Source of the DNA: Argiope bruennichi
Lineage: Eukaryota
Assembly: GCF_947563725.1 (NCBI RefSeq)
Contig: NC_079163.1
Span: forward strand, 54,758,922 to 54,822,921
Direction of reading: 5' to 3'
DNA: 64,000 nucleotides
The position numbers and the translations under genes were made by a program. Position 1 is the stretch's first letter, and each line of letters starts with the position of its first letter. Positions 4,844 through 46,779 of the stretch are shown here, piece by piece. A model generated the notes under the pieces. That model was not told the origin of the DNA. It did no database searches and saw nothing but the letters and a program-made list of their open reading frames with translations.

Positions 4844-4939
4844 TTTCTTGGATGCAAAATCTAGAACTTTTAAATAACCATCCTCACTTCCTAATAAGGC
4901 GTGAGATGCTACTTTCTGACAAGAAGCTGAAGTAATGTT
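4844..4939 (-). CDS. NWD1-like gene exon with a WD40-like motif (NITSASCQKVASHALLGSEDGYLKVLDFASKK). The gene probably continues toward or beyond position 1.
   Basis: It has a TTTTAATTTCAG acceptor and a AAA|GTAAGA donor, in phase 0-0. GSEDGYLKVLD resembles the WD-repeat core GSxDGxIKVWD. Confidence 0.5.
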
Positions 4940-6240
4940 CTGAAATTAAAATAAATTTCTGTAGATACACATTCAGAGAAGAGTATAATACATAATATAA
5001 AATTCGTAAAATTTGCTACTACATAATGTATAAAATTCTGTAAAAATTATTGACACCAAGTTTCTTTTTCTTAATGGAAAAAAATAAATGTAAAAATCAG
5101 ACTAAAGATGATGTAAACATTTAATAAACAATTATATAACCTAATGCATTACACTGGAAGTGAAACTCGAATACGCATCAAAAGAAATTTACATTCAATA
5201 GCAATTTCTTGATAACTGACGATTATCAAAGTAGTGAAATTGAGAATTCATTAAGTAAATATTATAATTACGTTATGTAACAAGGAACTTAGAAGTAGAA
5301 TGTTAAGCCAAGCACTGGCTATGCTAAAGAAAATAAAATTATCCACTTTTATTTTGTATTGGATAAATTCAATAACTAATGAGAAAAGGTTTGTTTGTAA
5401 AAAAAAAAAAAAAAAAAAAAAAAAAACTTCACATATCGCTCAAAATTACAGATTTCATTTCTTTTTCTGCTCAACGATCCCTTCCAGCCTTCACTGTTAA
5501 CTGAAGTCAGAAGATAATTAATTCTGAGAATGTCCACTTTTACTGTCTTCCAAACTTTAAAACATTTTGTTATTAAGAATATCGATGGTTTAAATACTTC
5601 CTTGAATTTAGTACCTTAGACCGCTAATTCAGCATGACCGTTTTAAGCGCCGCAAAACGATACCAATAATATAATCACAAATTATGTTTTTAAATTATAT
5701 TTCAGTCTTTCATCCTCTGTAACCTTATGCTTTTAATGTATTTAACTGGGTTTTACTACGTTTTTTTACATCACTCGAAGCAAAGGCATCTAATCATAAA
5801 TACTAAGCATTTGCAATACCTAAAAGAAAATAATATCTGCAGGCTCAATGAAATATCAGCTGATTACGCTTATTCGAAAAAATAGGAAAATCGTTTCCTT
5901 CCTTTGCAATGAAAGCATCATTTTGAAATTCACTACCGTCACAATTATGCTCACGAGAAGTCATGAATTACCAAGTAAAAGGAAAGGTTCTACCTAGTTT
6001 CAAAATGTGTAAAATCTTACAAATTTACGAGTCTTCAATTTTCAATGTAAAGCTATCGAAAAACATGAACCAAATCAAATTCCGCAAAAACAGGTACATA
6101 TAAAGTCATATTGAATCATACGAATAAATAATATTTTAATATTTTTTTAGCATTATATTGTAAATGGTGCAAAGAAACAAAAGATTAAAAGACAAATAAA
6201 AAAATCAGCAAATTTTTCAAACTAAATAAAGTATTCATAC

Positions 6241-6400
6241 CTTAAAAAATCCTCTCAGAGTTGCAATCCTAGGATCATGGTCAGAAATAGAAAGACACTC
6301 TACAACAGACGATTTATAAACATCATTTTTCTGAAGATTTAATTTCACTAGAGAATCTGATGGCTCATTTAATGCTTGTTGCATAACTAAATCAGGGTAT
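6241..6400 (-). CDS. NWD1-like gene exon (IYPDLVMQQALNEPSDSLVKLNLQKNDVYKSSVVECLSISDHDPRIATLRGFFK).
   Basis: It has a T(11)CATTAG acceptor and a AAG|GTATGA donor, and the phase is consistent. Confidence 0.5.
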
Positions 6401-7465
6401 CTAATGAAAAAAAAAAATCCCGAAGCATTTATAAGAAAATTCTAACCTTGTAATAACGATAATACAATAATTGGATTTAGAGGTTTTAAAGAATACATAT
6501 AGTGATTTAAAAGGGAAATTGGATTTCACGCTGAAAGAAAAATGAGAGTCAACCTTTTTTTTGTAAATTGCTATAAATTACTTCAGCTTTTTAATTTTTT
6601 ATTAGCTTCATTTTAGTATAATTTTGATAATCCAATATTTATTGTATTTTTCGAAGCTTTAGCTACTTTTGCTCAGAGTGCTCTTTCAAATACATAAATT
6701 CAATTAAAGCAATCCATGTTTTGAACTGAAATGCATACAAATAAAATACAAATGAAATCTCCCTTAAAGTTCACAATAAATTCGATTAGTCAAGCTCCGA
6801 TAACATCTAATTCAACTGCCTACCTTCCTCCAAATTATTTCGTGCAAGAAACTGTTTCATGCTTTTAGAAAATTATGAAAATTTTTGATAAATTATAAAT
6901 AAAAAATCAATAAAGAAATATTAAAAATTTTTAGTGGTTAAGAACTAAATTACAGAGATATTTAAATCATAATTATGGACTATAAAATCAAATTTTATAA
7001 TTAAGAATGAAAGTGATGGGATATAAACAAAATATATAGTCATATTTAAGTACTGATAGAACCATTACAAGAAATATCATGATTTATCACAATATTTCTT
7101 ATTAAAAGTACATTTTAATGTATTTACAACAACCAATTTTGATGCAGTAACATCTTAGCTGTAAATAATATCAGTATTTTCATTTTTAAGCTTCACAGCA
7201 TTTTGTCCAAATAATTTTATTTTAATTCTTATGAAATCAAGCTTTAAACATTTTTTAAAACATTAATAAACTAACAAAGTGATTTAAAGATTTAAAGTAC
7301 TATGAGATTAAAAAAAATCCGTGCAATTTTTAACTTATAACAAAAAATACTTTGCAAATAATTTTTCAAAGAAATAATAATACTAAAAAATTAAATTCTA
7401 CTAATATTGCATCACAGGAAGGATTTATATCAACCAAAGGTCAAGAAGAAAAATAACAAACTCAC

Positions 7466-7775
7466 ATTTGAAAAATATGCAAATTCCGCGACACAAAGTC
7501 GTAAAATGATGACAATAAAGGAAAATGAATTTTTCTTAAAGCTTCACTACTTCCTGTTCGACGTTCTTCAAATAGCAACGAATAATATTCTAAAAGTAAG
7601 TCCGATGCTTCCACACTAAAAGCAGTTTCTAGAAATTGGAGACAACACAGATAATCAGCAAGCTCCTGGTAACAGCTTCCATGGAACAAATGAAAAATTA
7701 GTCCTCTAAAGGCTGATCCAGATCGTCCTTTCCAAGTACCATTGTCTTCAAAGTCGCAGGTGATATAATAATATG
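7466..7775 (-). CDS. NWD1-like gene exon (AYYYITCDFEDNGTWKGRSGSAFRGLIFHLFHGSCYQELADYLCCLQFLETAFSVEASDLLLEYYSLLFEERRTGSSEALRKIHFPLLSSFYDFVSRNLHIFQ).
   Basis: It has a TTAAAG acceptor and a AAT|GTGAGT donor. The entry phase matches exon 19289-19398 across an 11.5 kb intron that holds the Tc1 element and the LINE/LTR-RT nest. Confidence 0.45.
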
Positions 7776-8209
7776 CTTTAAAAGTTAAAAATAGTATTAG
7801 ATAAAAATGTGAACTTAAAAATATAATATTAAATACAAAAAGATAAAAAATTTACGACACACCAAAGAAAAATGCATTAAATGAAATGTAATGCCATTAC
7901 TGACTACAAAATCTCTCCAGAAAAATGTTAAGCAACTATTTAAATGCAAGCTTTTGTGTAGATATAAAGCTCGGAAAGGTCTCATTCTCCCTCTCAACTT
8001 TAAACAATCATAAATATTTTCTATAAGTCATCGAAAGTTTTCTTTATAATTGACTATCAATATCACTTTTTAAAATTATAGTTTTATTCTTAACAAGTAT
8101 GTTTTGGTAAGCCCATATATCTATGTGAAATAAACATTTTTAATTGCACCTTTCTTAAATAAAACAAAAAATAATTTTCTTCATTCAGCTAGGTTGCATG
8201 TGTCCGTTG

Positions 8210-44968: not shown

Positions 44969-45081
44969 ATATATATATATATATATATATATATATATAT
45001 ATATATATATATATATATATATATATATATATATATATATATATATATATATATATATATATATATATACACACACACACA
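44966..45081. repeat. (TA)~52 microsatellite followed by (AC)6, adjacent to the right TIR of the foldback element.
   Basis: The run can be read directly. The IYIY ORFs in the track are artefacts. Confidence 0.95.
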
Positions 45082-45534
45082 TATATATAGCATATTTTAG
45101 ACCTCTGATGCACAAAAATAAAAAGAATATAAATAACAGGTTCACAGGCCATTACTATTACTACAAAAGGCTATATCGCATTTTGAAGTGATGTACTACT
45201 GACTACGTATAATACACTAGACTAATATGAACATTATTCATTCGCTAGTTAACAGGATTTTATTGAAACTGTCTAATGTTAAAAAATATGTATATAATGC
45301 TTATAAAATAATTTTTAATGCTAAAAGAATAAATATATAATGCTTATAAATTATTAATTTCATTTCCTAAGCGTTTAAAGACTTCCTGATGTTCAAACTA
45401 TTTAACTTAGAAAAAAAATTTAAATAGGTTTAAAAAATTGCATTGTAAATCTTACAAAATCAGTGTTTCAGAAAACATTCATAATTTCTATTTATTAATA
45501 AATACAGAAGCAATAAACGAAATAAAGTACTTAC

Positions 45535-45603
45535 TTGACTAACTGAGTAGCATTTCCACCAAGGTAAACATCTTTACCATCAGCACTATCAGATTCATCT
45601 AAA
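45535..45603 (-). CDS. NWD1-like gene exon (SLDESDSADGKDVYLGGNATQLVK).
   Basis: It has a CACAG acceptor and a GTAAGT donor, and the phase is consistent with its neighbours. Confidence 0.45.
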
Positions 45604-46630
45604 CTGTGAAAAAAAAAAAAAAAACGTTAATCAAATGTAGATAATGATTTCCATGCAGTAATAACTTGTAAATGCCGAGTTGTTATATAGGATGAAAAAC
45701 AAAAAAGCCACGAATTACTAAACATATAACATAGAAAACATACAAGAGAACTAAAACTTTATTTCGTAAACTTTCAGAAGCACATACATTTCATTTAACT
45801 ACGAACCACAAGCAGACAGTATTTTATATTGAACCGTTTCTTGGCTAATGGTTCCACTAATATGAGACGGATGGAAGCTAGAAGTTAATACCGTAGCATT
45901 TTATTTTAGTGCTATTTCATATTGTTATTCTTAAATTTAATCGTGGGATAATTTATTAATGTATATTCATAAAGCTTGCATGAATAAAATGAAGCTTATC
46001 ATGTGTACTAAAAATTCGCCTACTTCAGTGGTTTTTAGAACTTCCATACGTCACTGTAATAAATTATTACCCTTTTCGAAGCAAAGTTAATATAAATTTC
46101 ACTGCTTTAGCTTGAACACTAGGTCCCAACGAGCTTCTTTAAAATATAGAACAAACAGTTTATTTTATCTGTTGCATTTCTAAATACTGGTATTCCCGTT
46201 GCGAAGTTGGTTAACACCCGACAGTTGAAGTGAAAGGTTGTTTGCTCAGGAGCAGAGAGCTTGGCAATGGCTGCAATTATTCATTTATAATTAAGCTTCA
46301 TTATATTAAATTTCTTTTTTTCTATCTTGTAAATGACTTTTAAATTCTTACAGTAATGTCTAAATAAAAATATGTACGTCTTTAATAGACTAGTCATTAA
46401 AACCCCTGAGGCAAAAAAATGCGCATTTAAACCCCACATCGATGCCACACTATCGTACATGTTTTATGTTAATTTAGAAAGAAAGTAATTTGCCTTTCCG
46501 AAAAAATATTAACACAGAAATAATAACTAATCAGCGAAATATTACATAACATTTATATACATTATGTCGCAAATCATTTTTTTATATATTTATTATAAAT
46601 ATATTTGGTTTCGTAAACCACAATACGTAC

Positions 46631-46779
46631 CTAGAGTTACTCATAAAAAAATCCACATCTGTATACAGCAATTCAGGGTTAACCATTTCCCGATATTTAT
46701 GAAGAAAAGATTTGATTATTTTTTTAACAGTTTCGTCACCATCCGAGCCAGATCCTCTGAGAACTATCACATGATCTAA
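46631..46779 (-). CDS. NWD1-like STAND gene, most 5' coding exon seen (LDHVIVLRGSGSDGDETVKKIIKSFLHKYREMVNPELLYTDVDFFMSNS). A possible ATG lies at MVNPE.
   Basis: A CCTTAG acceptor (plus 46780-46785) and a CTAG|GTACGT donor (plus 46625-46630) flank it. The phase chains into the next exons. The track's leading M for this ORF is a GTG start, not an ATG. Confidence 0.5.

Follow-up and report, generated by a model that had tools for sequence, protein, structure and literature searches.

Identity of the DUF4062-NACHT gene

Which of the animal proteins that combine a DUF4062 and a NACHT domain is encoded by the split gene found on the minus strand of a 64,000-nucleotide stretch of the Argiope bruennichi genome (contig NC_079163.1, positions 54,758,922 to 54,822,921; hereafter the window)? 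A preliminary description of the window had attributed to this gene the architecture of NWD1. Four human proteins carry both DUF4062 and NACHT, namely TEP1, NWD1, NWD2 and NPHP3, and TEP1 alone among them has TROVE and vWA domains ahead of DUF4062 (10.64898/2026.05.01.722283). NWD1 has its DUF4062 motif in the N-terminal region (PMC7186558). Our analysis indicates that the segment 408-46779 (minus strand) very probably contains 18 internal exons, approximately the middle third, of a spider orthologue of TEP1 (telomerase protein component 1, or vault-associated p240). This assignment relies on architecture, collinearity, synteny and the names of the best matches.

The gene model is made up of 18 minus-strand exons running from 46779 down to 408 (Table 1). 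All 17 introns are of the GT-AG type, the acceptors follow polypyrimidine tracts, and the spliced product is 968 amino acids long with zero stop codons. A single spliced minus-strand DUF4062-NACHT-WD40 STAND NTPase gene had indeed been proposed, and the six motifs on which that proposal was built all fall on the minus strand where they had been placed. The 17-exon chain described at the time was essentially right, as 46779 marks the acceptor side of exon 1 and 4844 the donor side of exon 17, but one more exon has to be added at 532-408. In the same way, the limits given for the exons were real but the gene runs past both of them and past the window itself. The exons suspected to be missing at 28-33 kilobases (kb) do not exist: exons 9-11 are collinear without a gap with a telomerase protein component 1-like protein of Stegodyphus dumicola (P0038, XP_035227346.1).

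The position of DUF4062 within the product speaks for TEP1. The domain starts at about residue 126 of the in-window product, so it is internal and not N-terminal as had been supposed, and the 124 amino acids upstream of it, encoded by exons 1-3, align to the relatives P0002, P0015, P0038 and P0049. Exon 1 directly follows ttgcttttttccccccttAG, a strong phase-0 acceptor; the gene therefore extends further upstream and exon 1 is not its first exon. With an internal DUF4062, three TEP1-type exons ahead of it and an internal exon 1, the NWD1 architecture had to be abandoned.

The comparison with named proteins leads in the same direction. The spliced product aligns collinearly to P0038 residues 359-1328, with 58% identity over 956 aligned amino acids; the identity is 45% with P0049 and 39% with the horseshoe-crab TEP1-like protein P0054. 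"Telomerase protein component 1-like" is the name borne by the best long matches, which come from Stegodyphus dumicola (P0038), Tachypleus tridentatus (P0054) and Lytechinus pictus (P0041), and among the large-database and named-relative matches no named match was NWD1. According to Pfam, TROVE is present in P0038, P0049 and P0054 (E from 2e-54 to 1.5e-111), and the TEP1-specific domains Beta-prop_TEP1_2nd and Beta-prop_TEP1_C (PF25047, PF25048) were found in the same relatives. In the large database, the nearest protein is the Araneus ventricosus "Telomerase protein component 1" (P0001, 87% identical), which was also the sole match of a search carried out with the concatenated C-terminal exons. 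The gene family is known, and RefSeq already names spider orthologues of TEP1.

A profile made from the alignment of P0001, P0002 and P0015 was also searched exhaustively against 1.84 billion representatives. The matches divided into two distinct sets. The proteins of 2000-2900 amino acids, which have the length of TEP1, match this profile from its position 1, at their own residues 400-870. The proteins of 1100-1800 amino acids, NWD-like or prokaryotic, match only from position ~203, which corresponds to the DUF4062 start, at their own residues 2-5.

A profile hidden Markov model (HMM) check of the concatenated exons, which the preliminary description had suggested, recovered DUF4062 (54.1 bits, cut-off 24.7) and NACHT (27.1 bits, cut-off 26.7; residues 388-550) above the Pfam cut-offs, the NACHT P-loop NTPase sitting directly downstream of DUF4062, a TIR-like domain. 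The WD40 beta-propeller was recovered in part, with Pfam matches at residues 887-965 that are below the family cut-offs and further WD40 matches in PDB. The C-terminal half only of the vWA/DUF5920 region appears to precede DUF4062 here. The order of the product is thus the C-terminal half of vWA/DUF5920, DUF4062 (TIR-like), NACHT, a winged-helix/helical region and the first WD40 blades.

Several points weigh against the TEP1 assignment or restrict its reach. The exons of TROVE and of the N-terminal half of vWA (P0038 residues 1-358) were not found in the window, and the full architecture is deduced from orthologues and synteny. DUF5920 is below threshold on the window product, with 18 bits for a cut-off of 27 and a match that spans positions 100-180 of the 203 in the profile; P0002 and P0015 reach 30 bits over the homologous stretch, above the cut-off. 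Only about two WD40 blades of the gene are in the window. The exon structure is a predicted model, built from the genome sequence and protein guides, and the public annotation of the Araneus locus (L001, BGPR01000017.1, 10001-30169 and 37881-40169) splits TEP1 into fragments. Within the TIR-like domain, a lysine (K138) occupies the position of human R908, and the R908A mutation lowers the activity of the human domain. Finally, the putative roles of the spider protein as an NADase, an RNA binder and a vault component are transferred from human TEP1.

The ends of the gene and the nested LRR gene

The gene leaves the window on its left side at the equivalent of residue 1328 of the 2010 in P0038, and most of its WD40 repeats therefore lie beyond position 1. 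On the opposite side, a Pfam scan of the open stretches of 22 amino acids or more on the minus strand between 46.8 and 64 kb detected neither TROVE nor vWA, and a tblastn search of the window with P0038 and P0049 recovered no TROVE or vWA exons. A 28-sequence profile HMM compared with the six frames found no TROVE either, its best match (E = 0.71) being a low-complexity stretch. The tblastx comparison with the Araneus locus showed no frame-specific conservation upstream: three frames are equally conserved, all of them with stops.

This upstream region contains a leucine-rich repeat (LRR) gene on the plus strand (Table 1), which codes for a putative Toll-like, chaoptin-like or other LRR protein with a signal-peptide-like N-terminus, an LRR_8 region (E = 9e-106) and, on the C-terminal side, a Cys-rich piece whose tail is hydrophobic. 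Its DNA is 91% identical to that of an Araneus LRR gene of 1236 amino acids, which lies opposite to and upstream of the TEP1 model in that species. The TEP1 gene of Stegodyphus dumicola covers ~340 kb (5222-345363) and an opposite-strand LRR gene of 1235 amino acids is nested inside it. The LRR gene is nested in or adjacent to TEP1, on the opposite strand, in the three spiders out of three that were compared, and this conserved arrangement is documented here. The LRR gene of the window is most probably nested in the intron before exon 1, the same TEP1 intron as in Stegodyphus, and the exons of TROVE and of the N-terminal half of vWA would therefore lie upstream, past the LRR gene and beyond position 64000.

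One alternative is that Argiope has a lineage-specific truncated TEP1, whose transcripts would begin within the 6.9 kb separating exon 1 from the LRR gene and whose product would lack TROVE and keep the C-terminal half of vWA, the TIR-like domain, NACHT and WD40. Such a gene would account for the 17 kb of upstream sequence with no detectable TROVE or N-terminal vWA exon and for the divergent LRR gene that begins at 53686, and a conserved block at 50185-50559 could then be its promoter or its 5' untranslated region. Nevertheless, exon 1 begins in the middle of a domain (position ~100 of the 203 in the DUF5920 profile) behind a strong acceptor, and no conserved ATG-bearing coding exon was found in the gap when compared with Araneus by tblastx. 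Moreover, the same LRR gene lies within a TEP1 intron in Stegodyphus, whose model includes TROVE. The Araneus model P0001 does have a "start", but this is a 6-nucleotide ATGCAT exon ~1 kb upstream of the equivalent of exon 1, which is typical of ab initio padding and likely artificial. A truncated gene is thus very unlikely, and a TEP1 orthologue that extends rightwards out of the window is the reading that we retain.

The block at 50185-50559, between exon 1 and the start of the LRR gene, is an observation of its own. It is unusually well conserved with positions 5336-5710 of the Araneus locus L001, with ~73% identity whichever of the three frames is translated, stops being present in each, and it is non-coding. 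It may represent a shared repeat, or an element that regulates TEP1 or the LRR gene.

Comparison with NWD1 and NWD2

The second alternative is the one originally put forward, namely an NWD1/NWD2-type gene with an N-terminal DUF4062 effector, followed by NACHT and WD40, and without TROVE or vWA. The three domains do occur in an NWD1-like order, Pfam gives a weak HTH_NWD1 match below its cut-off (17 bits, residues 610-652), the window is without TROVE sequence, and NWD1 does have DUF4062 in its N-terminal region (PMC7186558). Yet, the succession of NACHT and WD40 is common to TEP1 and NWD1/NWD2 and does not discriminate between them. By contrast, three exons (124 amino acids) of TEP1-type sequence precede DUF4062, exon 1 opens at a conserved phase-0 acceptor, and the close relatives that have names are all TEP1 and carry TROVE. 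In addition, the alignment to the TIR-like domain of human TEP1 is near-gapless over 214 residues, TEP1-type insertions included, and the nested LRR gene provides synteny with the TEP1 gene of Stegodyphus. An NWD1 or NWD2 identity is therefore highly improbable and was rejected, as the N-terminal DUF4062 that would define it is contradicted.

Selection and intactness

The comparison of exons 1-11 with Araneus (585 codons) gives a ratio of nonsynonymous to synonymous substitution rates (dN/dS) of 0.14, with a dN of 0.053 and a dS of 0.38. The gene is under strong purifying selection and is functional, and this excludes that it is a pseudogene or a fortuitous series of open frames. Decay, or a fortuitous series of frames in AT-rich, transposon-rich DNA, could be suggested by the gypsy-, Tc1- and mariner-type elements in the introns and by the fragmented Araneus annotation, but either is scarcely credible given 968 stop-free amino acids over 18 exons, canonical sequences at every junction, the above ratio at that dS and a human TEP1 match with E = 4e-52, and both were rejected on the integrity of the frame and the evidence of selection. 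An explanation in terms of separate genes was considered and rejected as well.

The TIR-like domain and its catalytic residues

DUF4062 has been shown to be a TIR-like domain that acts in phage defence (10.64898/2026.05.01.722283; 10.64898/2026.06.25.731849). More precisely, it is a TIR-like NAD+ hydrolase (NADase) whose bacterial homologues are antiphage systems (10.64898/2026.05.01.722283). According to the same work, the hydrolysis of NAD+ and NADP+ by human TEP1 depends on E1008, also in reconstituted vaults, and the activity of the protein climbs with its concentration, consistent with an activation driven by oligomerisation; human NWD1 and NWD2, and NPHP3, were inactive in the same in vitro NADase assay (10.64898/2026.05.01.722283). 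The conclusions of a second preprint on the bacterial proteins are compatible with these, and TEP1-like proteins are mentioned there (10.64898/2026.06.25.731849).

The TIR-like domain of human TEP1 (PDB 11gz_A) matches residues 126-339 of the spliced product with E = 4.1e-52 and three short gaps. The human residues were mapped through this alignment, in which the chain index equals the residue number minus 893, an offset fixed by the spacing of four residues (Table 1). The catalytic Glu is invariant in 31 DUF4062 proteins and, like it, the R976 equivalent is kept in every relative sampled; the equivalents of R954 and R908 vary among TEP1 orthologues. In the spider protein, which is under purifying selection, the catalytic residues known from the human NADase domain have been retained, with K at the R908 position. 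The conserved Glu/Arg set and the dN/dS value are compatible with activity.

Relation to known systems and proposed mechanism

TEP1 has long been known as a vault- and telomerase-associated protein that is conserved widely in animals. The locus had been presented as the best candidate in the window for an under-described system, a label that no longer suits it now that the biochemistry of DUF4062 was published in 2026. The likeness to bacterial antiphage proteins noted at the same time was a sound intuition, since overtaken by the 2026 literature: the large-database matches are mostly bacterial or metagenomic DUF4062-NACHT proteins, with one archaeal named match. The present analysis contributes an exact model, of 18 exons, for a locus left in fragments by the Araneus annotation.

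The gene shares with known TEP1 the domain order over the part that is present, the collinearity with the Stegodyphus protein (58%), the match to the human TIR-like domain, the equivalents of the catalytic Glu, R954 and R976, and the nested LRR gene in the upstream intron (Stegodyphus). It differs from known TEP1 in that only the middle third is in the window, TROVE, the N-terminal half of vWA and most of WD40 being outside, and in the Lys at the R908 position. NWD1 and NWD2 are paralogous STAND proteins in which NACHT, a helical domain and WD40 also come after DUF4062; however, their DUF4062 is N-terminal and they are without TROVE/vWA, whereas here the domain is internal and comes after TEP1-specific sequence.

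The bacterial DUF4062 antiphage systems (Swarozyc, Evangelion) have the same TIR-like core, with the invariant motifs SSTF, ERD, DLRWG, RYG and S-x-T-x-x-E and the catalytic Glu, and many prokaryotic DUF4062-NACHT-WD40/TPR proteins combine it with NACHT and repeats, matching the window product with E values up to 1e-75. Nevertheless, the bacterial systems are single-ORF (open reading frame) genes in defence islands, plasmids or operons, whereas the spider gene has 18 or more exons, kilobase-scale introns and TEP1-specific N-terminal modules, and an antiviral role is not indicated by the present data. APAF-1 has the same STAND layout of effector, NTPase, helical domain and WD40 sensor, on which the activation model below is based, but its effector is a CARD and its NTPase an NB-ARC, without orthology at the sequence level.

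A mechanism can be carried over, by analogy, from human TEP1 to the spider protein. The protein would be a STAND switch whose WD40 propellers keep it in the off state. The sensing by WD40 of an activating signal may trigger a NACHT-driven oligomerisation, as proposed by analogy with APAF-1, and this oligomerisation would bring the TIR-like domains together. These could then hydrolyse NAD+/NADP+ into ADP-ribose(-phosphate) and nicotinamide by means of E237, the equivalent of human E1008. The TROVE domain would bind small RNAs, and the protein would probably reside in vault particles. A further and rather doubtful extension of this model is that the TEP1 of spiders, or of chelicerates, is a catalytically competent STAND-gated TIR-like NADase acting as an executioner of cell death or innate immunity, to which the intronic transmembrane LRR gene, conserved between distant spider families, might be functionally or transcriptionally coupled. 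In that case, the vault-NADase hypothesis of 2026 would extend to arthropods.

Construction of the gene model and coordinates

The exons were chained by enumerating, for each pair of neighbouring exons, all GT/GC donors and AG acceptors near the block ends; the splice pair kept was frame-compatible and stop-free and gave the junction peptide closest to a guide protein, namely the Araneus P0001 as far as exon 9 and the Stegodyphus dumicola P0038 for the others. Exons 9-13 were chained a second time by splice phase alone. The DNA-level similarity with the Araneus locus covers introns as well as exons. In that species, the end of the P0001 model is a readthrough of the exon 9 donor into the intron, and a separate model of 250 amino acids spans the equivalents of window exons 10-11.

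Table 1. Coordinates of the exons, motifs, mapped residues and other features of the window (aa, amino acids)
Feature	Position	Strand	Remarks
Exon 1	46631..46779	-	aa 1-49; part of the TEP1 vWA/DUF5920 region; internal exon
Exon 1 acceptor	46781-46780	-	ttccccccttAG; phase 0; same position and phase in Araneus
Exon 2	45535..45603	-	aa 50-72; vWA/DUF5920 region; GT-AG; 86% aa identity to Araneus
Exon 3	43096..43251	-	aa 73-124; end of vWA/DUF5920 (FIAERSSGGQLTYVENID) and linker
Exon 4	42098..42274	-	aa 125-183; DUF4062/TIR-like start; FISSTF, ERD, VDLRWGI; K138
Exon 5	40728..40967	-	aa 184-263; DUF4062/TIR-like core; GILGDRYG with R206, SITELE with E237
Exon 6	38956..39069	-	aa 264-301; C-terminal part of the TEP1-type TIR-like domain
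Exon 7	34411..34528	-	aa 302-341; alignment to the human TEP1 TIR-like crystal construct ends at aa 339
Exon 8	34099..34278	-	aa 342-401; linker and NACHT start with Walker A P-loop
Exon 9	33181..33335	-	aa 402-452; NACHT
Exon 10	30922..31066	-	aa 453-501; NACHT with Walker B
Exon 11	27799..28080	-	aa 502-595; NACHT C-terminal part and helical/winged-helix start
Exon 12	27526..27658	-	aa 596-639; winged-helix/helical region
Exon 13	24244..24430	-	aa 640-701; helical region
Exon 14	19289..19398	-	aa 702-738; helical region; found only with the Stegodyphus orthologue as guide
Exon 15	7466..7775	-	aa 739-841; APAF-1-like helical domain; preceded by an 11.5-kb transposon-filled intron
Exon 16	6241..6400	-	aa 842-895; helical domain end (QQALNEP), entry to the first WD40 propeller
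Exon 17	4844..4939	-	aa 896-927; WD40 blade
Exon 18	408..532	-	aa 928-968; WD40 blade (TASTDTTLSIWS); donor at 407
Motif FISSTF	42255-42238	-	DUF4062
Motif VDLRWGI	42144-42124	-	DUF4062
Motif GILGDRYG	40918-40895	-	DUF4062
Motif SITELE	40825-40808	-	DUF4062
Motif GSPGSGKT(T)	34131-34105	-	NACHT Walker A; GSPGSGKTT at aa 391-399, intact
Motif FVLVIDGLD	31002-30976	-	NACHT Walker B; aa 475-483, intact
E237 (human E1008, catalytic)	40810-40808	-	second Glu of SITELE
R206 (human R976)			in GDRYG; PDB alignment
R184 (human R954)	exon 4/5 junction	-	codon split between both exons; PDB alignment
K138 (human R908)			Arg to Lys; PDB alignment
LRR gene	53686-59098	+	ORFs 53686-56364, 56735-57538 and 58724-59098
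Ty3/gypsy-type retrotransposon	~10258-15334	+	TEP1 intron 14; long terminal repeats 10258-10589 and 14993-15334
Tc1/Sleeping-Beauty-type transposase	17462-18490	-	intron 14
Mariner-type transposase remnants	35953-36871	-	intron 6
Microsatellites	~24540-24780, ~44950-45100, ~25090-25210		intronic (CA/TG)n and (TA)n

Other features of the window

Rfam and tRNA scans of the window gave no matches. The window is AT-rich, with ~27% GC overall and ~35% in the exons. The GC content is 0.355 at 62000-64000, against ~0.27 in the neighbouring sequence, and the minus-strand open stretches of that interval are without a Pfam match.

The TEP1 gene is very large, and its introns host many mobile elements. 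The Ty3/gypsy-type long terminal repeat retrotransposon is degenerate: its terminal repeats are 86-89% identical and its ORFs, for a protease (RVP_2), a reverse transcriptase-RNaseH and an integrase (Integrase_H2C2), are fragmented. The Tc1/Sleeping-Beauty-type transposase is divided into two ORFs of 258 and 83 amino acids with HTH_SB and HTH_Tnp_Tc3_2 matches, and the mariner-type remnants are spread over three frames (Transposase_1, E = 1.3e-14). The intronic microsatellites are a source of spurious long ORFs (poly-Cys-Val, poly-Ile-Tyr). With its kilobase-scale introns, microsatellites and eukaryotic transposons, the window has the character of animal DNA.

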